18,343 bases of DNA from a virus (IMGVR_UViG_2526164601_000033), one strand, 5' to 3'; shown: positions 1 to 17,500, counted from the first letter of the stretch. Notes: generated by a model not told the origin, from the sequence alone. Numbers and translations are program-made.

Positions 1-1131
1 TCAAATGACCAGTTTTTTCCATTCCTTACCGCGTGCGTCGTTGTAAATATCGGTCATTTTTTGATTCGAATGGCCTAGCAAAATTTTGGTATCAACCCCC
101 TGCTCTCTGAACAATCGCTCTGATAAAGATCTCTGCTCATGGAAAGAGGGAGGGGTGCCATTAGCACGCCAGTTGTAATCCACAGAATCCCGGGCTTTTT
201 TAAATGCAACGGTTAATGTTGCTGGCTTAACCATCCCGCCTCGCTTAGCTGTCCCTTTCGCGTGATGGTGGTGCAATAGCCACGGACTAAGAACGCAATC
301 GCGGCAGGATGACACCACATCATCCAGGGTGAGATTTAATTTATCGCAACGCAGAGCCAGAGGGATGGCAATCCGGGTTCCTGTTTTTTGCTGTTCGACA
401 TGAAGATAACCATCCCGGATATCCGAAAATTGCATTTTGCAAATATCTGAAAGGCGCTGGCCTGTCATCAGTGCCAGCAGCATACCGCGCTGTAAAAAGT
501 AACCATCCTTTTCCGCTGCGTTATAAATCATCATCCACTCATCAAAAGTCAGTCGCTGTCTTGATATCCGCACCTGCGGTTTTTTTGCCGATTCTGCAGG
601 GTTAAAGCCTGGCGGGACATCGCCCGTTTGCTGAGCTTCCCGGAAAACATCGATCAGTACTTTCCTGAAAATTTGTCCCATTCTGTTATGTCCTCTGGCC
701 TTGTACTCTTCCAGTACTGATACCACATCTTTTACGGTTATGGCATCTAACGGTCTGGTGCCAAAACGTTCATCAAATACCCTGAGAGGGGCCGCTTTCT
801 GTTTCAGCGTGTTGAGTTTGATCTCGCCGTTTTCATATCTTTCCTGTTGAATTTTTCTGTAATTATTCAGAAAAATGGTAACGGTTGATGAACCGCCGGT
901 ATCACTAATAATTTTCTCCTGCAGACTGAGCATTTGTTCCATTTGCTGCCGGGCAAGACGGCTGTTCGCTTCTGCTGCAATAGTTTCTGCCAGTTTCTGG
1001 TCAATACTGCCGAGACCGTGATTTTTGCCTGTTATGGGATGCCTGTAACGCCAGTAAACTTTGTTATTTCTTTTGTCAAAATACGGAGATAATCCCGGAA
1101 CATCGGTTTTATATTTTCGCGGGCGCGCCAT
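1..1131 (-). CDS. int: Tyrosine recombinase, lambda-family phage integrase
   Basis: 376-aa ORF. The overall layout and the C-terminal block ILLGHSNQKMTDIYNDARGKEW closely parallel lambda Int (HLLGHKSDTMASQYRDDRGREW, catalytic Tyr) as recalled. It is the terminal gene of the leftward arm and its start overlaps an excisionase-like gene. Confidence 0.9.
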   Translation of the reverse strand: MARPRKYKTDVPGLSPYFDKRNNKVYWRYRHPITGKNHGLGSIDQKLAETIAAEANSRLARQQMEQMLSLQEKIISDTGGSSTVTIFLNNYRKIQQERYENGEIKLNTLKQKAAPLRVFDERFGTRPLDAITVKDVVSVLEEYKARGHNRMGQIFRKVLIDVFREAQQTGDVPPGFNPAESAKKPQVRISRQRLTFDEWMMIYNAAEKDGYFLQRGMLLALMTGQRLSDICKMQFSDIRDGYLHVEQQKTGTRIAIPLALRCDKLNLTLDDVVSSCRDCVLSPWLLHHHHAKGTAKRGGMVKPATLTVAFKKARDSVDYNWRANGTPPSFHEQRSLSERLFREQGVDTKILLGHSNQKMTDIYNDARGKEWKKLVI

Positions 1132-1357
1132 CTTCCAGTATCCTCTTCAAAGCAGGGTGATCTGTGGCGATCACCTCCGGCTTGTTTACCATTCCGACAA
1201 AGCGAGCTTGCGGATCCACTCGCCAGCGTCTTCCAACTTTTTTGGGGAGAGGAAATATCATTCCGGCTTTAGCGTATTTACTTAACGTACTCGGAGTTGG
1301 GACCGGTTCACTGAATTCCTCTTTTGCCCACTCAGTGAGCAGAATAAGTCTTGCCAT
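1109..1357 (-). CDS. xis: Excisionase-like recombination directionality factor (small basic protein)
   Basis: 82-aa ORF immediately upstream of int on the same strand, with a 23-bp overlap of the int start (xis-int overlap as in lambda). The call rests on position and size; no sequence match to lambda Xis is claimed. Confidence 0.55.
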   Translation of the reverse strand: MARLILLTEWAKEEFSEPVPTPSTLSKYAKAGMIFPLPKKVGRRWRVDPQARFVGMVNKPEVIATDHPALKRILEDGAPAKI

Positions 1358-1421
1358 GAGCGTCGTTCGCTAATCATGGTCGCCGCCACTATAGCTGGTG
1401 GGCAACGACCGGGGTTGAACA

Positions 1422-3893
1422 TTAAAAATCAGCCTGATTCGGGATCAGTTTTTGCCAGATAACTGAAACGTATTTTGCCTGGTAACGGGCGTCATCAAGT
1501 GCATTATGGCGCTCACCTTCGAATGGAATAGCCGTTCTGGCATCGAAGTCTATGGCTTTCCCCAGCTCAACGATTGTGCGTACATCGCGATCGTTGTAGT
1601 AACGCCACGGGCAGGGGATCCCCTGCCGTTCGTATGAACGGCGCAAAATCGTGTTGTCGAAGTTGGCTCCATTTCCCCAGACCTGAACAAAAAATTCACC
1701 GGAGTTTTCGTCGATAAATTCCCGCAATTGTAACAGTGCATCATCTAACGGGATTTCATCGGTCATAATGGCAGATTGCGCTTCGCGTGATTGCTTAAGC
1801 CACCATTTAATGGTGTCCCGATCAATGACCCCGCCAGCAGTTTCCAGATCGATAGTCTTACTAAATTCCGGCCCCATATCTCCGGTTTGCGGATCGAAAA
1901 ATATTGCACCTATTGAGATGATCGGGGCATCAGGATTTTTTCCCATGGTTTCAAGGTCGATCATTAGATGGTCACACGTCCTGCTGGTGGATGTGATTTC
2001 TTGATGACCGTTCACCTTAATTGAGTGATCTGCCGTCTCGCCAGTTTCATTATCGCTATCGTGATGCTGATTGCCGTCAGTGTTCTCCTTGTGTGGATGT
2101 TCAGCGCCTTCCATTTCCTCCGGATCATCTTCCTGAACTTCAACCTGATACTCTTCATCGAATGTTTCCTGGTATGTTGCGTCGCCCATCACCGCGCCAC
2201 AATCAGGGCAGTTGCCGCCGCCGGTCTGACCGCAGGCGGTGCAGACTTTTTCCGGTTCCTGTTGCGCTACTGGCTCAGGTTGTTTCGTTTCTGGCTCGTT
2301 TTGTTGCGTATTTGGGCTGTTTTGTTCCGCTTTCTGGTCGTTCTGTTCCGATTCTTGCTGGTTCTGGTTTACAGAATCGCGGGTTTCAATCCCCTTTACC
2401 CATTTCGGATCATTCGGGTCGCTAATCCCTGCAACAAATTCTCCGCGAGAGGCAGCAAGCAACTTATCGGCGTCAGGCTGGCTGATATTGGCTGCCTGCA
2501 TAATTTTGTTTACTTCGTCAGCGGTAACTTTTACCGGCTCTGGTTGTGCGGTCGTGTCAGATGCACCAGTATTTTGTTGTGAACCTGAGTACGTGCCGTT
2601 TTTACGTGCGAAGTATTCCTCTTTTGTGATTTCCGTAGCTCCCAAGGCTAGTGCTTTTTCCAGACCAGAAAGTTTGTTTGCGCGACCGTATTTTTCGCCA
2701 TCCTTGTCGGTGAAGAGGAAGTAGAACGGCCCCTCACGCTCTACAGATGGTTCGACTTCCACTTTGCATTCGGTTTTTTCGTTGCCCGGAATTGCCGTTT
2801 CCACTGCATCAGTTTCTGGTACTGGCGACGAGAGAGTATCAGTTGCGCTCTGATTTCTTCCTTCATCTTCAAACACGCCCTTTGTAGTCAGGTATTCAGT
2901 AATGTATTTGTTCAGTGCCACAGGGTCTTTGTGAATGTCGATCGGACGTTCACGGACAAGGCCAAAAATAGTCTGGCGGTCGTAGCGAAGGGCATCAGGC
3001 TGTTTGCGCATTGATGCCGAGATACGCTTCCAGTCTTCGCGGTCGTTGTCGATAACTTCATTTTTTGCCCAGCGATGGATGCTGCCGTCAATGTTTCCGG
3101 CATCCACATCACCAGGCCAGAGAGCGTAGGCCAGTTCTTCATCCAGCGTTTTCCATGTCTGCTTGTATTCGCGACAAATGGCGGCAGTGACTGGGTTGAT
3201 TTTTCCTGCTGAGTTTTCAGTGTTCTGTTGATTGACTCTGGCGCTGGCGAGATCAACAACAGACGTGTATTTTCCAGTCTCTTTGCGCTCTGCGTCCTGC
3301 CGTTTTTTCCAGTTACGTAATTCAGCCTGAATTTTGGGCCATTTGGCACCCGGATTACATTTGTGTTTAACCCATCCGATAGCGAACAGTTTGCGTTCCG
3401 GATACATAGCGTTAATTTCAGGCGTTTTCATCAGTGCTTCAACGATATGCCCGTCAAAGGTAGCAACGTCTTCCTGCAGTAATTCCTGCGCGTCAATCGC
3501 CATATCAACGGTGATGTTTTCACATGTACCGAACTTAACCAGGACCGCGTTCTGTACTTCAAGGGACAGCTTGTCAAAATTGACGTTCATCGGATCGGAT
3601 TCTGGTTCGACCGGAATAAAGGAAGCGGATTCCTCATCCCAGCGGTTTTCCTGCATATATTCAGCATCCCAGGAATCGAGGGCAGGGCGGGGTATACCGG
3701 GTTTATCCTCGCAGACAAGAAATTTATAAGCGCAGTCCTGAGCAGCCGGATAATGTTCCAGGAATTGCCAGTGAAATTTTGCGCGGGCGCGACGTTCATC
3801 ACCGGCTTCAATGGCAGTGGCTACAGCGACGGCACCTTCTTCCTTTATTGCCTGTTCGTCCGGAATGGCGGCGCAAATAAAGACTTTACTCAT
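1422..3893 (-). CDS. Large phage exonuclease-domain protein (C-terminal DnaQ-like DEDDh 3'-5' exonuclease, central zinc ribbon, low-complexity linker)
   Basis: 823-aa ORF. The C-terminal region carries DLET (Exo I-like), WGNGANFD (Exo II-like) and HNALDDA (Exo III-like) motifs. A CTACG...CPDCG zinc-ribbon-like motif and a Q/N/E/P-rich linker lie upstream of it. GAGG lies about 11 nt before the ATG. Confidence 0.75.
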   Translation of the reverse strand: MSKVFICAAIPDEQAIKEEGAVAVATAIEAGDERRARAKFHWQFLEHYPAAQDCAYKFLVCEDKPGIPRPALDSWDAEYMQENRWDEESASFIPVEPESDPMNVNFDKLSLEVQNAVLVKFGTCENITVDMAIDAQELLQEDVATFDGHIVEALMKTPEINAMYPERKLFAIGWVKHKCNPGAKWPKIQAELRNWKKRQDAERKETGKYTSVVDLASARVNQQNTENSAGKINPVTAAICREYKQTWKTLDEELAYALWPGDVDAGNIDGSIHRWAKNEVIDNDREDWKRISASMRKQPDALRYDRQTIFGLVRERPIDIHKDPVALNKYITEYLTTKGVFEDEGRNQSATDTLSSPVPETDAVETAIPGNEKTECKVEVEPSVEREGPFYFLFTDKDGEKYGRANKLSGLEKALALGATEITKEEYFARKNGTYSGSQQNTGASDTTAQPEPVKVTADEVNKIMQAANISQPDADKLLAASRGEFVAGISDPNDPKWVKGIETRDSVNQNQQESEQNDQKAEQNSPNTQQNEPETKQPEPVAQQEPEKVCTACGQTGGGNCPDCGAVMGDATYQETFDEEYQVEVQEDDPEEMEGAEHPHKENTDGNQHHDSDNETGETADHSIKVNGHQEITSTSRTCDHLMIDLETMGKNPDAPIISIGAIFFDPQTGDMGPEFSKTIDLETAGGVIDRDTIKWWLKQSREAQSAIMTDEIPLDDALLQLREFIDENSGEFFVQVWGNGANFDNTILRRSYERQGIPCPWRYYNDRDVRTIVELGKAIDFDARTAIPFEGERHNALDDARYQAKYVSVIWQKLIPNQADF

Positions 3894-10758: not shown

Positions 10759-11517
10759 ATGAGGAACATAATGGCAGGTTTTTTAATATTCCTGTCTTCT
10801 GCTGCTTATGCTGATATCAATCTGTATGGTCCTGGTGGCCCGCATACAGCCTTGCTTGATGCAGCCAAACTTTATGCCGAAAAAACAGGTATTATAGTGA
10901 ACGTTCATTACGGCCCACAGAACAAATGGAATGAAGATGCCAAAAAAAATGCAGATATCTTGTTTGGCGCATCAGAACAATCTGCTCTGGCTATCATTCG
11001 GGACCATAAAGACAGCTTCAGTGAAAAAGATATTCAGCCTCTTTATCTGCGAAAAAGTATTTTACTGGTAAAGAAAGGTAATCCTAAAAATATCCGGAGT
11101 ATTGACGACCTGACCAGACCTGGGATTGGCGTAATTGTTAATGATGGTGGTGGTACCAGTAATACATCAGGCACTGGCGTCTGGGAAGATATTGCCGGAC
11201 GTAAAGGGAATATAGAAACTGTCGCCGCAATCCGAAAAAATATTATTTTATATGCGCCCAATAGCGGAACTGCACGTAAGGCTCTTGAGAATCAGCCTGG
11301 AGCAGATGTCTGGATAACCTGGGCTGACTGGGCAGCCAGTAATCCAGAAATTGGTGATGTCGTGGAAATAGCGCCAGACTACGTGATATGGCGTGATATG
11401 AACATTACAGTACGTCAGGATGCAAATGATGAAACCCGTCGATTTGCAGAATGGCTACAAACCGATGAAGCGGCGCCTGCATTCAAAAAATATGGCTGGA
11501 CCAGGAAAGGCACTTGA
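10759..11517 (+). CDS. Periplasmic solute-binding protein, ModA-like (molybdate/tungstate/sulfate-type PBP2 fold), with signal peptide
   Basis: 252-aa ORF with AAAGGAG SD. N-terminal signal-like MAGFLIFLSSAAYA. The blocks ADILFGASEQ, SILLVKKGNPKNI and C-terminal AEWLQTDEAAPAFKKYGW parallel E. coli ModA (ADLFISADQ, SLVVVAPKAS, YDYLKGPQAAEIFKRYGF) as recalled. The gene is AT-rich. Confidence 0.8.
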   Translation: MRNIMAGFLIFLSSAAYADINLYGPGGPHTALLDAAKLYAEKTGIIVNVHYGPQNKWNEDAKKNADILFGASEQSALAIIRDHKDSFSEKDIQPLYLRKSILLVKKGNPKNIRSIDDLTRPGIGVIVNDGGGTSNTSGTGVWEDIAGRKGNIETVAAIRKNIILYAPNSGTARKALENQPGADVWITWADWAASNPEIGDVVEIAPDYVIWRDMNITVRQDANDETRRFAEWLQTDEAAPAFKKYGWTRKGT

Positions 11518-13891: not shown

Positions 13892-14257
13892 ATGACTGAA
13901 CGGATAGAATTTGTTTTGCCTTACCCGCCGACGGTGAATACCTACTGGCGACGTCATGGCAATACGTATTTCATCTCGGAAGCCGGAAAGCGTTATCGCC
14001 GTGATGTGGCGCTAATTGTTCGCCAGCAGCGGCTGAAATTAAACCTGTCCGGAAGGCTGGTGATAAAGATTATTGCAGAGCCACCGGATAAGCGCCGTCG
14101 TGACCTGGACAATATCCTGAAAGCACCACTGGATGTGCTGACGCATGCCGGACTTCTCATAGACGACGAGCAGTTTGATGAAATCAATATTGTGCGCGGT
14201 CAGCTCGTTCCTGGTGGGCGGCTGGGGATAAAAATCACAGAACTGGAGTGCGCATGA
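13892..14257 (+). CDS. rusA: RusA Holliday-junction resolvase
   Basis: 121-aa ORF. The blocks LPYPPTVNTYWRRHGN and DKRRRDLDNILKAPLDVLTHAGLLIDDEQ parallel E. coli RusA ([45 protein letters not shown]) as recalled. Confidence 0.9.
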   Translation: MTERIEFVLPYPPTVNTYWRRHGNTYFISEAGKRYRRDVALIVRQQRLKLNLSGRLVIKIIAEPPDKRRRDLDNILKAPLDVLTHAGLLIDDEQFDEINIVRGQLVPGGRLGIKITELECA

Positions 14258-14475
14258 ATAACCACTATTTACAGTTTGTGCGTGAGCAGCTCATTATCGC
14301 CACCGCTGATTTGAGTGGGGCAACAAAAGGTCAGCTTGAAGCCTGGCAGGAGAATGCCATGTTCGATACAGGGCGTTACAGGCGAAAAAAAATCCGGTAC
14401 CGCGATGAAGTGACTGGAAAAATGATAACGCGGGATAATCCACCAATCGTTATTATCCTGCGCCCGGCCCTTTAG
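14254..14475 (+). CDS. Hypothetical 73-aa protein; 3' end runs 10 nt into the first tRNA
   Basis: ATG at 14254 overlaps the rusA stop (ATGA), with GGAG 5 nt upstream. The stop codon TAG at 14473-14475 lies inside the tRNA. It occupies the position where a late antiterminator Q gene would be expected but is too short for one. Confidence 0.35.
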   Translation: MNNHYLQFVREQLIIATADLSGATKGQLEAWQENAMFDTGRYRRKKIRYRDEVTGKMITRDNPPIVIILRPAL

Positions 14476-14541
14476 CTCAGTGGTGAGAGCGAGCGACTCA
14501 TAATCGCCAGGTCGCTGGTTCAAATCCAGCAAGGGCCACCA
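14466..14541 (+). tRNA. tRNA-Ile2-like (anticodon CAU; Met cannot be excluded from sequence alone)
   Basis: Manual cloverleaf: acceptor GGCCCTT/AAGGGCC, D-arm GCTC-AGTGGTGA-GAGC, anticodon loop CTCATAA, T-arm GCTGG-TTCAAAT-CCAGC, encoded CCA. Resembles E. coli ileX-type tRNA as recalled. Confidence 0.8.
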
Positions 14542-14542
14542 A

Positions 14543-14618
14543 CCGCCACTAGCCATCAGGAAAGAGCGTCAACCCTTTAAGTTGAGTGTGCGAGGTTCGA
14601 GTCCCCGGTGGTGGTCCA
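14543..14618 (+). tRNA. tRNA-like sequence, degenerate (possible pseudo-tRNA); predicted anticodon loop CCTTTAA
   Basis: Acceptor CCGCCAC/GTGGTGG (one G-U pair) plus encoded CCA and a canonical GGTTCGAGTCC T-loop. The D-stem has only two Watson-Crick pairs (GCCA versus GAGC), the T-stem has an A-C mismatch, and position 33 is C rather than U. Confidence 0.4.
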
Positions 14619-14631
14619 TTATCGGTATTCT

Positions 14632-14705
14632 GCGTTGTTAGCTCAGCAGGACAGAGCAATTGCCTTCTAAGCAATCGGTCACTGGTTCGACTCCAGTACA
14701 ACGCG
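14632..14705 (+). tRNA. tRNA-Arg (anticodon UCU, reads rare AGA)
   Basis: Manual cloverleaf: acceptor GCGTTGT/ACAACGC, D-arm GCTC-AGCAGGAC-AGAGC, anticodon stem ATTGC/GCAAT with loop CTTCTAA, T-arm ACTGG-TTCGACT-CCAGT. CCA is not encoded. Confidence 0.8.
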
Positions 14706-14721
14706 CTACACTTATTTTCCC

Positions 14722-14746
14722 GGCTCGCTTTTGCGGGCCTTTTTTG
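14722..14746 (+). terminator. Rho-independent terminator after the tRNA cluster
   Basis: Stem GGCTCGC / GCGGGCC (one G-U pair) with TTTT loop, followed by TTTTTTG. Confidence 0.6.
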
Positions 14747-14788
14747 TATCTGCGCCACGCCCGGCGCATACCAACCACAGAGCCTTTC

Positions 14789-14798
14789 GGGGGGGGGG
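14789..14798. repeat. G10 homopolymer tract
   Basis: Ten consecutive G at 14789-14798, about 80 bp upstream of the TerB-like start codon. Confidence 0.9.
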
Positions 14799-14880
14799 AG
14801 CTTACGGAGTGGTCAGTGTGACTTTCTCTGTGGGCAGATCGCTCCCGGGCGTTGGCTCACCCACCCAAAGGAACGTCACG

Positions 14881-15313
14881 ATGTTTGGTATTTTTGGTAA
14901 AAAAAGCCCGCAGAGCGGCAACGGAAATTAAAAAGTTTGAAAAACGCGATCTGGCACAGGTGGTGATTAACGCCGCCTACCTGGTGGCCTGTGCAGATGG
15001 TGAATGTGAGGCTTCCTAGAAAGCGAAGATCGAACAGGTACTGCGTAATCAGCCTGCGCTGTACGCGTTTACGTCAGAAATTAATGCGATTAGCGCAACC
15101 ATTATCGGTCAGCTGGATACGAACTTTAAAACTGGTCGTCGTGCGGCGTTACGTGAGATCGAGGATGTGAAACACGATACGCGTGAAGCGGAAGATGTGC
15201 TGGATGTGGCGGTGGCCATTGCGGAGGCAGACGGCGAAATTGAGCCGGAAGAGCGCAAGGTGCTGGAAGAGATTGCCGGTGTTCTGGGTCTTCGTCTGGA
15301 GAATTACCTGTGA
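14881..15313 (+). pseudogene. TerB-like (tellurite-resistance TerB family) gene disrupted by a frameshift in an A7 tract and an in-frame TAG
   Basis: ATG at 14881 (AAGGAA SD) reads MFGIFGKKSPQSGNGN then stops at 14929-14931. The +1 frame from about 14906 continues ...FEKRDLAQVVINAAYLVACADGECEAS-TAG(15017-15019)-KAKIEQVL...AVAIAEADGEIEPEERKVLEEIAGVLGLRLENYL, ending at 15311-15313. The ADGE..EE motifs are TerB-like as recalled. The frame change maps to the A7 run at 14899-14905. Confidence 0.6.
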
Positions 15314-15477
15314 CGGTAAAACTGCGCCTGACTGTGGCTGCACTCCTGCTGTTTCTGGTGGTGATGGTGGATTTCACCAGCAGAATCATGTCGGTGCTGG
15401 CGGATGGGGTGCTGGTCTGCGGCATTATGGTATTGCTGTGGCCGGTGATAAAAAGAAACAGCCTGCATAATGCTTGA
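15310..15477 (+). CDS. Possible small membrane protein (55 aa, GTG start overlapping the TerB-like stop)
   Basis: The frame reads VTVKLRLTVAALLLFLVVMVDFTSRIMSVLADGVLVCGIMVLLWPVIKRNSLHNA with two hydrophobic segments. GTGA start/stop overlap and no clear SD, so weak. Confidence 0.3.
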   Translation: MTVKLRLTVAALLLFLVVMVDFTSRIMSVLADGVLVCGIMVLLWPVIKRNSLHNA

Positions 15478-15643
15478 TTTTTTGTTTGCTGTTTATTAAA
15501 AACACTTCTGCATGGTGAATCCCCCTGTGCGGAGGGGCGATCAGCAACCAGGTATATGGGATAATCGCGGATTCAGGTGCTGATACTGAATTCACCGGGA
15601 GGCACCCGGCACCATGCAAGAAAAAGAATGTGCATGCAAACAT

Positions 15644-15667
15644 GCCCCTCTCCGGAGGGGCTTTTTT
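15644..15667 (+). terminator. Rho-independent terminator in the intergenic region upstream of the esterase gene
   Basis: Stem GCCCCTC / GAGGGGC with TCCG loop, followed by TTTTTT. Confidence 0.55.
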
Positions 15668-15794
15668 ATGGGTAAAAAATGCCCGAATGGGTTCGGGCAA
15701 CAGCATGAGATACTGATATTGTTGTGTTGTTATCGTGTGGATTTTAACCAGGGTTTATCAGGCTGCGCAACTGCGTGGCCTTTTTTCATTTCTT

Positions 15795-15882: not shown

Positions 15883-16824
15883 ATGACATTTAAACATTAT
15901 GATGTTGTCAGGGCGGCGTCGCCGTCAGATCTTGCGGAAAAGCTGACACATAAACTGAAAGAGGGCTGGCAGCCGTTTGGTAGTCCGGTGGCCATAACCC
16001 CTTATACTCTGATGCAGGCGATTACAGCAGAAGGTGATGTGGTGGTCAGTGGTGCAACTGAGCCGGATTGGTACTACGTCATCGTACTGGCCGGGCAGTC
16101 CAATGCCATGGCTTACGGTGAAGGGCTTCCGCTGCCGGATTCATACGATGCTCCGGATCCGCGCATTAAACAGCTGGCGCGCCGCAGTACAGTGACGCCG
16201 GGTGGGGCTGCCTGCAGATATAACGATATTATTCCGGCCGACCACTGCCTGCATGATGTGCAGGATATGAGTACGCTGAATCATCCGAAGGCAGACCTGA
16301 GCAAAGGGCAGTACGGCTGTGTCGGCCAGGGGTTACATATTGCCAAAAAACTGCTCCCGTATATCCCGAATAACGCGGGGATCCTGCTGGTACCATGCTG
16401 TCGTGGTGGTTCGGCATTTACCCAGGGCGCGGAGGGGACATTCAGTGCGGACACGGGGGCCAGCCAGGATTCGGCGCGCTGGGGTGTGGGTAAACCGTTA
16501 TATCAGGACCTGATTGCGCGCACCAAAGCTGCATTACAGAAGAACCCGAAAAATGTGTTGCTGGCGGTGTGCTGGATGCAGGGAGAGTTTGACATGAGCG
16601 CCGCCACCCACGCACAGCAACCTGCGCTGTTTACAGCCATGCTGACACAGTTTCGTGCTGACCTCTCCGTGTTTAACGCGCAGTGCCATGGTGGCAGTGC
16701 TGCAGATGTGCCGTGGATTTGTGGTGACACGACGTATTACTGGAAAAATACCTACGGCACCCAGTACACCGGGAAAGCAATCGCTGGCGAAGGTGACGTC
16801 AATTCCTCTGGTCAGTCCGGTTGA
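15883..16824 (+). CDS. Sialate O-acetylesterase-like protein (NanS-p-like: N-terminal DUF1737-like segment plus SGNH/SASA esterase domain), apparently truncated
   Basis: 313-aa ORF with GGGAGG SD. Motif LAGQSNAMAYGE (the GQSN block of SGNH/SASA esterases) and WMQGEFD (WxQGESD-like). Synteny with prophage nanS-p paralogues downstream of the tRNA cluster in lambdoid/Stx phages; those are usually much longer. Confidence 0.75.
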   Translation: MTFKHYDVVRAASPSDLAEKLTHKLKEGWQPFGSPVAITPYTLMQAITAEGDVVVSGATEPDWYYVIVLAGQSNAMAYGEGLPLPDSYDAPDPRIKQLARRSTVTPGGAACRYNDIIPADHCLHDVQDMSTLNHPKADLSKGQYGCVGQGLHIAKKLLPYIPNNAGILLVPCCRGGSAFTQGAEGTFSADTGASQDSARWGVGKPLYQDLIARTKAALQKNPKNVLLAVCWMQGEFDMSAATHAQQPALFTAMLTQFRADLSVFNAQCHGGSAADVPWICGDTTYYWKNTYGTQYTGKAIAGEGDVNSSGQSG

Positions 16825-17263
16825 GTTTTCGACATCATCGTGGCGGCGGGCTGTTCTGTCTCTTGAAGAACATCATAAAGCCTGGTTGTTGTGGTGTTAC
16901 AGCGGGAGTATTTGTTGGGAATATCAGATCGCGATAACACAGTGGGCGTGGAATGAATTTAATACTCAATCCGGTACCAGAAAAATTGCTGGGAAAACGC
17001 AGGAACGCCTGAAAAAATTAATCTGGCTGGCGGCGCAGGCAGTAAAAGCAGAACTTTTTGGTGGGGAAGGTTATGAATATCAGGAGCTGGCATTACTGGC
17101 GGGAGTGACAACTAAAAACTGGTCCAAAACATTTACTCGTCACTGGGTTGCAATGAAACACATTTTTCACCGACTGGATAGTGAGGCTTTATTATTTGTA
17201 ATGAGAACACGTTCAAAACAAAAGGCGGCATTTTCAAAGCAATGTGTTGCAAAAGTAGATTGA
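16825..17263 (+). other. Open reading frame without a credible start, in a different phase downstream of the esterase stop (possible frameshifted C-terminal remnant)
   Basis: The track ORF 16655-17263 is stop-free for 202 codons but has no ATG with an SD after 16824. The part upstream of 16824 is the alternate frame of the esterase gene. Confidence 0.3.
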
Positions 17264-17326
17264 AAGGCATATATTTCATGCAAATCTGATATTTTGCCGA
17301 TTTTGTACGTGATGGCAAAAGCAAAC

Positions 17327-17354
17327 AAAACCCGCCCACAAGCGGGTTTTGTTG
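17327..17354 (+). terminator. Rho-independent terminator (hairpin plus T-run)
   Basis: Stem AAAACCCGC / GCGGGTTTT with CCACAA loop, followed by GTTGT. An A-run precedes it, so it could act in both directions. Confidence 0.6.
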
Positions 17355-17500
17355 TGCCACTTATCTCGGATAGACATGGTGAATGCGCTGGTGGAGGAGA
17401 TAAGGGTGATTTTTGTATGCTTGCAACATTGATTTCGTAACACACCATTTACGGGGCGTACAAAAACAGGGAGAGTGAGGGCGTTTATTTTGTGCCCTTC

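Follow-up and report, generated by a model that had tools for sequence, protein, structure and literature searches.

A probably decayed allele of a TerB-domain prophage gene in Escherichia coli, preceded by a G tract of variable length

Nucleotides 14789-15313 of IMGVR_UViG_2526164601_000033, an 18,343-nt stretch of viral DNA (hereafter, the window), most probably belong to a decayed allele of the TerB-domain 'moron' gene tciA. We give a probability of about 85% to the reading that this allele is an inherited pseudogene and not a contingency locus, because no length of its A or G tract permits the synthesis of full-length TerB. An earlier note on this DNA had described a TerB-like frame broken by a +1 change in an A run and by an in-frame TAG, with a G10 run about 80 bp upstream of the start. 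It had proposed that the gene could be switchable (phase variable) rather than dead, with decay mutations or assembly errors as fallback readings. Direct reading of the sequence located both lesions and all three elements (G10, A7 and TAG) where the note had placed them, with 82 nt between the G tract (14789-14798) and the ATG at 14881, and comparison with orthologues agreed with the reading of decay. The features of the gene and its leader are as follows.

14784-14788, plus strand: CCTTT, anti-Shine-Dalgarno arm of the leader helix, pairing with AAAGG at 14867-14871 (RNAalifold and pair counts, 11 leaders)
14789-14798, plus strand: G10 tract, polymorphic in length, derived from GGGGGTG, 5' strand of leader helix 1 (shuffles, lengths in relatives, intact alleles)
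14855-14872, plus strand: 3' strand of leader helix 1 (GGCTCACCCACC), followed by the Shine-Dalgarno sequence AAAGGA (comparative folding)
14881-15313, plus strand: TerB/TciA-like pseudogene, 143 codons when repaired (repair and profile/structure matches; RefSeq relatives annotated as pseudogene, 'internal stop')
14881-14883, plus strand: ancestral ATG (MFGIFGKK...), 8 nt after AAGGA (MFG..KK conserved in Enterobacterales and jumbo phages)
14885-14887, plus strand: TTG used as start of the A7 allele by automatic annotation (MVFLVKK...; PGAP CDS coordinates in relatives; proteins P0004, P0006, P0007, P0010 and P0013)
14899-14905, plus strand: A7 tract, a +1 insertion in ancestral GGT AAA AAA GCC (A6) (orthologue comparison)
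14929-14931, plus strand: TAA ending the ATG frame of the A7 allele after 16 codons (direct reading)
15017-15019, plus strand: amber TAG at codon 46, from GAG (Glu46) (homologue alignment, GAG-bearing alleles of the same background, 577 records with the TAG 62-mer)
15311-15313, plus strand: stop TGA (direct reading)

The allele differs from its intact orthologues by three derived changes. An extra A in GGT AAA AAA GCC (A6 to A7) puts the conserved ATG out of frame; a change from GAG to TAG at codon 46 stops translation and costs the first DGxxxxxE motif its invariant Glu; and, in the leader, GGGGGTG has become a pure G run that then slipped to various lengths, G10 in the window. The first two were inherited, by descent or recombination, and are fixed across hundreds of genomes of Shiga-toxin E. 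coli (STEC), and the third would behave as a neutral mononucleotide microsatellite.

Removal of one A yields a frame of 143 codons whose sole remaining defect is the TAG at codon 46. The conceptually repaired protein matched Pfam PF05099 (42.1 bits, with a cut-off of 24.4), PHROG 632 'tellurite resistance' (230 bits over residues 1-143 of 143) and the solved structure of Klebsiella pneumoniae TerB (PDB 2JXU; E 4e-7, residues 15-137), and the TerB-like assignment therefore survived profile search. A search in a collection of 5.8 billion proteins returned 164 relatives, and the family alignment shows two DGxxxxxE motifs, the Glu of the first being codon 46. The two motifs do not occur intact in an uninterrupted frame of the window, where Glu46 is TAG and the ATG frame is shifted at A7; this copy is a gene remnant and not a functional member of the TerB family. 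It matches over its full length the TciA/TerB-like protein of lambdoid prophages (PHROG 632; tciA of Escherichia phage JLK-2012, NC_049942; 'tellurite resistance TerB family protein' in RefSeq) and shares with tciA systems the partner tciB (DUF3927) and a location bounded by the late-region tRNAs on one side and by the sialate esterase and lysis genes on the other. Unlike intact tciA, it is shifted by a +1 insertion past codon 8 and has an amber codon in place of Glu46, and the copies of its relatives are RefSeq pseudogenes. The TerB of the terZABCDE operon (K. pneumoniae, 2JXU, PF05099) has the same domain with its two DGxxxxxE motifs, whereas the window gene stands alone in its prophage, with other ter genes absent nearby and only distant sequence similarity. 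No experimental function for the prophage TerB/TciA family was found in the literature searched.

Intact proteins of E. coli, Klebsiella, Salmonella, Serratia, Pantoea and jumbo phages start with MFG-(I/F/M/L)-F-x-KK, indicating that the ATG at 14881 is the ancestral start. Since the DNA of intact alleles reads GGT AAA AAA GCC or GGT AAG AAA GCC at this point, the A7 of the window is a one-base insertion; comparison with intact orthologues, as the earlier note had proposed, thus returned A6 as the ancestral tract and GAG as the codon replaced by TAG. Only when the sequence is read from the ancestral ATG does the frame change come to light. PGAP starts the allele in the downstream frame, at TTG 14885, and for this reason the NCBI pipeline annotates close relatives as 'internal stop' without a frameshift; a small set of E. 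coli proteins beginning with MVFLVKK represents the A7 allele called from this TTG. Lying 12 nt from the Shine-Dalgarno sequence and 4 nt past a strong, well-placed ATG, the TTG would at most serve as a weak start. Alleles in which A7 is combined with GAG are common (four of ten de-duplicated places) and are called intact from TTG 14885, which suggests that the extra A, without the TAG, may not abolish expression. Programmed frameshifting or transcriptional slippage at A7 was also considered and rejected, reasoning from the sequence. A-rich heptamers promote a -1 shift, whereas passage from the ATG to the TerB frame would need +1 on AAA AAA A before the common codon AGC, with no known stimulator visible, and any such shift would be irrelevant because the TAG remains.

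To count the alleles, short exact-context queries were run against 5,426 complete E. coli genomes. The A7 context (90-mer) was exact in 549 records and the A6 version of the same 90-mer in only three. Two of these, UTAK-1 and OkiPb01711, are G7/A6/TAG and hence still dead, and the third, from O157:H7 86-24 (a curli-positive isolate), is G12/A6/GAG, with an intact frame starting at the ATG. In the natural alleles that combine A6 with TAG (loci L013 and L014), the A6 frame still ends at codon 46, so that a length change in this tract does not toggle an otherwise intact gene. Every close relative fetched carries A7 and TAG, including O26:H11 11368 and both assemblies each of 97-3250 and 2013C-3277, and each is flagged as a pseudogene in RefSeq; the disabling lesions, recognized against intact orthologues, are thus shared by descent among relatives.

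As to the second lesion, position 46 is Glu in 17 of 17 aligned homologues, down to 48% identity, and the amber codon arose from GAG, because the exact protein background of the window exists with GAG (loci L029, L030 and L033) as well as with TAG (L028 and L032). The 62-mer context of the TAG was exact in 577 records, across O157:H7, O26, O111, O103 and O145 strains. Its GAG version was found in 13 records, an undercount, as other backgrounds differ at neighbouring synonymous sites, and for this reason it was not used as a frequency of the intact gene. The TAG ends translation in either state of the A tract. According to ARAGORN, the only anticodons in the window are CAT, TTT (degenerate) and TCT, with no suppressor tRNA (CUA anticodon); neither a cognate suppressor nor a recoding signal, one of which an amber-suppressed or recoded gene should have, was found. 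An internal restart past the TAG was rejected, the next in-frame candidate being GTG 15167, from which a product of just 48 residues would result.

A few rare alleles carry TGG (Trp) at codon 46 (L017 1501-1929 and L018 1501-1929, single contigs), on two leader backgrounds, G7 and GGGGGTG. Their frame is reopened, with the invariant Glu of the motif replaced, and they are most simply explained as pseudo-reversions from TAG to TGG.

Some observations sit uneasily with decay as the explanation. The 97 codons past the TAG contain no further stop or frameshift in any allele examined, indicating that either the decay is young or the allele is repeatedly repaired by recombination with intact paralogues; the gene is present in a median of 3-4 copies per genome. 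Additionally, all four combinations of A6 or A7 with GAG or TAG exist. The absence of secondary lesions, the TGG alleles and an intact tciB that overlaps the TerB stop would also be expected if a useful product persisted, be it by a TTG start with amber read-through, as a short N-terminal peptide, or as a leader RNA tuning tciB or the late genes through the length of its G tract. We consider this unlikely: the window has no suppressor tRNA, Trp at position 46 replaces an invariant motif Glu, and the TGG alleles are singletons. The preferred reading, an inherited pseudogene, is also consistent with the ratio of nonsynonymous to synonymous segregating sites, 6:2 in the A7 lineage and 15:41 in the intact lineage (Fisher p = 0.012), a difference that may point to relaxed constraint, in a comparison of only eight alleles with evident recombination. 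From these data we infer that the allele is non-functional and that its tract variation is neutral.

Homopolymers of the length seen here had been regarded as uncommon, which holds for the G10 tract (0.02 expected by chance from shuffles) and fails for A7, with nine A7/T7 matches in the window for 8.9 expected. The window also contains two A8 runs, longer than the A7, one inside the adhesin gene paa (10942-10949, in 10759-11517) and the other in the 5' fragment of the Q gene (14385-14392), and neither disturbs its frame.

The length of the G tract varies between strains, as the earlier note suspected. G6, G7, G9, G10, G11, G12, G13 and G14 were seen directly in the fetched loci, and a spread sample of 60 genomes gave match spans of 96-104 for a 100-nt query, consistent with G6-G14. 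This range occurs in the decayed lineage and also in 86-24 and other alleles that keep GAG. Heritable differences in length are real, because G13 recurs in three assemblies, the early reference genome of O26:H11 11368 and two others, and G11 in both independent assemblies of 97-3250. For strain 2013C-3277, one assembly has G10 and another G9, by instability or error. GGGGGTG is found in 10 of 10 sampled intact alleles in the ATG frame, the exception with a run being one A6 assembly of uncertain accuracy. Homologous leaders from Salmonella, Pantoea, Pseudescherichia, Franconibacter and Buttiauxella have AGGGGTG, AGAGGTG, GGGGTG or AGGGTG, and the pure G run is therefore derived, from an ancestral GGGGGTG. 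No sigma-70-like promoter, for which the tract might act as a spacer-length switch, was found between 14746 and 14880. Most economically, the run is read as a neutral microsatellite that has grown upstream of a defunct gene, with leader and gene no longer constrained.

The tract position is also the site of an insertion. In locus L016 (4084-5542, LC567822.1), ISEc20, of the IS110 family, is inserted directly after G7, exactly at the position of the G tract. The same insertion occurs in 10 further PPompW / Stx2a phage records from the LC5678xx series of prophages integrated at ompW. In these prophages the region from terB to the lysis genes is deleted and the other end of the IS adjoins GGGG; the G run may be, or resemble, an ISEc20 target.

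Slipped-strand contingency loci are well known as poly-G or poly-C tracts in genes and promoters of Neisseria, Haemophilus, Campylobacter and Bordetella, and in true contingency loci isolates scatter over ON and OFF lengths. The window resembles poly-G loci of this type in having a long G run near the start of a gene, with lengths that differ between isolates. It departs from them in that its ORF is independently dead, the tract is derived and absent from the 10 ATG-frame alleles, no promoter spans it, and the coding A7 is near-monomorphic. Reversible switching of TerB by slippage at A7, at the leader G10 or at both would fit the G6-G14 range between strains, the difference of one G between the 2013C-3277 assemblies and between 86-24 isolates, and the A6 variants on the same background, among them the curli-positive 86-24 isolate with its intact ATG frame and A7 parent. 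We nevertheless judge it very improbable, as the codon-46 TAG halts translation, and is thus epistatic to slippage, whatever the state of the A tract. Moreover, 549 A7 to 3 A6 records is unlike the scatter of true contingency loci, A7 is a run of ordinary length for the window, the G run is missing both from the sampled ATG-frame alleles and from other genera, and the polymorphism looks unconstrained (in eight alleles with evident recombination). The orthologues are disrupted in the same way and hardly vary at A7 or TAG, an outcome that the earlier note had itself named as speaking against a switch.

Homopolymer length is a typical residual error of long-read assemblies, and the extra A, the TAG or the length of G10 might in principle be errors of this assembly. 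The disagreement between G10 and G9 in 2013C-3277 would agree with such an origin, as would an otherwise unprecedented block relocation in the window, which could be a misassembly. Conversely, A7 and TAG recur unchanged, in 549 and 577 independent records respectively, including the early O26:H11 11368 reference, and G11 was reproduced by two independent assemblies of 97-3250. Error is therefore ruled out as the source of A7 and TAG, and an artefact seems to us barely credible overall; only the exact G count in the window is uncertain, by plus or minus 1.

Two isolates of O157:H7 86-24 differ at both tracts. The wild type is G11/A7/GAG (L012, NZ_CP017249.1) and the curli-positive isolate is G12/A6/GAG (L015, NZ_CP017251.1), with the ATG frame restored. 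Both genomes are PacBio assemblies polished with Illumina data, and since the region is present in 3-4 copies per genome, the difference may reflect either real slippage or mis-polishing. The 86-24 genome papers make no mention of it, and the literature searched on TerB/DUF3927 in Stx prophages and on homopolymeric-tract phase variation in O157 contained nothing on the tract or the pseudogene.

The G tract lies in a leader whose structure is conserved. Direct reading places the Shine-Dalgarno sequence AAGGA at 14868-14872, and the single-sequence fold of the window leader was not distinctive (z = -1.64), making comparative analysis necessary. An alignment of 11 leaders from at least six genera (loci L011, L019, L040 and L045-L052), analysed with RNAalifold, supports a two-helix leader (14784-14872). 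Its outer helix joins CCUUU, directly 5' of the tract, to the Shine-Dalgarno AAAGG, and in helix 1 the tract position plus GAGCC pairs with GGCUCACCCnCU. Across the 11 leaders, 94.3% of cells are paired and eight pairs show compensatory changes, as compared with 2.2 ± 1.3 in shuffles, none of 500 reaching eight; slid controls gave 0-2 compensatory pairs. The leader had no match to an Rfam family at E ≤ 1. From its predicted sequestration of the Shine-Dalgarno sequence, we consider it a candidate translational control element of the intact tciA/tciB cassette.

Whether the length of the G tract matters for this element was assessed by folding. Partition-function calculations for the window leader predicted lower accessibility of the Shine-Dalgarno sequence with G12-14 than with G5UG to G8. 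Together with a helix conserved with covariation across genera, this prediction would favour the leader RNA as the useful product considered above. Against it, the T-to-G change that makes the run pure abolishes a U-A pair that 10 of the 11 leaders retain, and the accessibility prediction comes from single sequences: the outer helix is the minimum free energy structure of 8 of 11 leaders, although not of two E. coli leaders of ancestral type, for which such folding does not reproduce the consensus helix. The poly-G run might be a hypermutable switch in a Shine-Dalgarno-sequestering leader that tunes tciA/tciB, STEC alleles with GAG (O157:H7 86-24 type) going ON and OFF by joint slippage of G(n) and A6/A7 and TAG alleles being burnt-out versions, a proposal that we regard as quite improbable. 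For the window allele, any effect of the leader tract is moot, because the coding sequence is broken twice, and the inherited pseudogene remains our reading of it.

The neighbourhood of the gene comprises the following features.

14466-14541, plus strand: tRNA with CAT anticodon (tRNA-Ile in relatives), first of the prophage tRNA cluster (ARAGORN; Rfam, 72.5 bits; PGAP in relatives)
14543-14618, plus strand: degenerate tRNA-like remnant, tRNA-Lys(ttt) (ARAGORN only; no Rfam tRNA match at E ≤ 1; unannotated by PGAP in relatives)
14632-14706, plus strand: tRNA-Arg (TCT) (ARAGORN, Rfam)
14722-14745, plus strand: terminator-like hairpin and T6, directly past the tRNAs and upstream of the TerB leader (sequence scan)
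15310-15477, plus strand: gene for a DUF3927/TciB-like small membrane protein, 55 codons, intact, its GTG start overlapping the TerB stop (GTGA) (Pfam PF13064, 60.4 bits; PHROG 1470)

The remnant at 14543-14618 is probably a degenerate argN-type tRNA; one phage record annotates its counterpart as tRNA-Lys. The exact TciB-like protein is indexed in 7601 blocks of a public collection. Downstream of its gene, Rfam matched the prophage sRNAs STnc100 (145.8 bits) and AgvB (95.6 bits), plus a weaker AsxR-like match, within 15481-15673 (plus strand) and 15674-15735 (minus strand). In the otherwise closest relative, the segment 15618-15889 is replaced by a shorter, unrelated one.

Over its first 14,448 bases, the window shares 99.92% identity with the lambdoid prophage next to ompW in STEC strain 2013C-3513, which has the order rusA, Q, tRNA-Ile, tRNA-Arg, terB (pseudogene), DUF3927, SASA esterase (nanS-p), holin and lysozyme. 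This order of Q, tRNAs, terB, DUF3927 and esterase in relatives indicates that the gene occupies the cargo slot which holds stx in Stx phages, between the tRNAs and the sialate esterase, as proposed earlier. According to a recent preprint on Pas sRNAs, the stx1 operon lies directly upstream of the esterase in phage NC_011356, and TerB is among the conserved neighbours of prophage sRNAs. Synteny in relatives of the window is that of the stxAB moron slot (Q, pR', tRNAs, cargo, nanS-p, lysis genes). Unlike in stxAB phages, the cargo of the window consists of tciA/tciB and the sRNA genes STnc100 and AgvB, with no toxin, and its Q and pR'-like promoter are displaced downstream.

This displacement results from the relocation of a 673-bp block, which is found at 16769-17441, inside the nanS-p esterase gene, and lies between the 5' end of Q and the tRNAs in relatives. 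The block comprises the 3' two-thirds of Q, the pR'-like promoter (17247-17275) and a hairpin, leaving Q split into a 5' fragment (14248-14448) and a 3' part (16769-17263) and the esterase truncated. The junctions (14448/14449, 16768/16769 and 17441/17442) show no microhomology, duplication, IS or mobile element. No complete E. coli genome spans the junctions of the rearranged order in one piece, and junction 33-mers were absent from IMG/VR (two junctions scanned) and from GTDB species representatives (one scanned). A real rearrangement, a misassembly or an edit could each account for the relocation; if real, it would have split Q and disconnected terB from the late promoter. The verdict on the TerB pseudogene is unchanged in any case. 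The 5' half of the esterase (15890-16768) is only 95.7% identical to the closest relative, whereas its flanks are 99.3-99.9% identical, indicating that it is a recombination patch from another prophage copy.

The pseudogene allele is ordinary, being already annotated in RefSeq and common to hundreds of Shiga-toxin E. coli, and for this reason it does not belong on lists of candidate phase-variable genes. Its biological importance is small. Automatic annotation conceals the frameshift through the TTG start, and the 'intact' TerB proteins of 142 aa that are called in O157 and other strains therefore probably have a wrong N-terminus or are poorly expressed. The variation of the tract from G6 to G14 is genuine; spurious differences between assemblies are to be expected at this hypervariable site, which might serve as a fine-scale marker. 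Lastly, the conserved leader, with its predicted sequestration of the Shine-Dalgarno sequence, would offer a concrete handle on the regulation of the intact tciA/tciB cassette.
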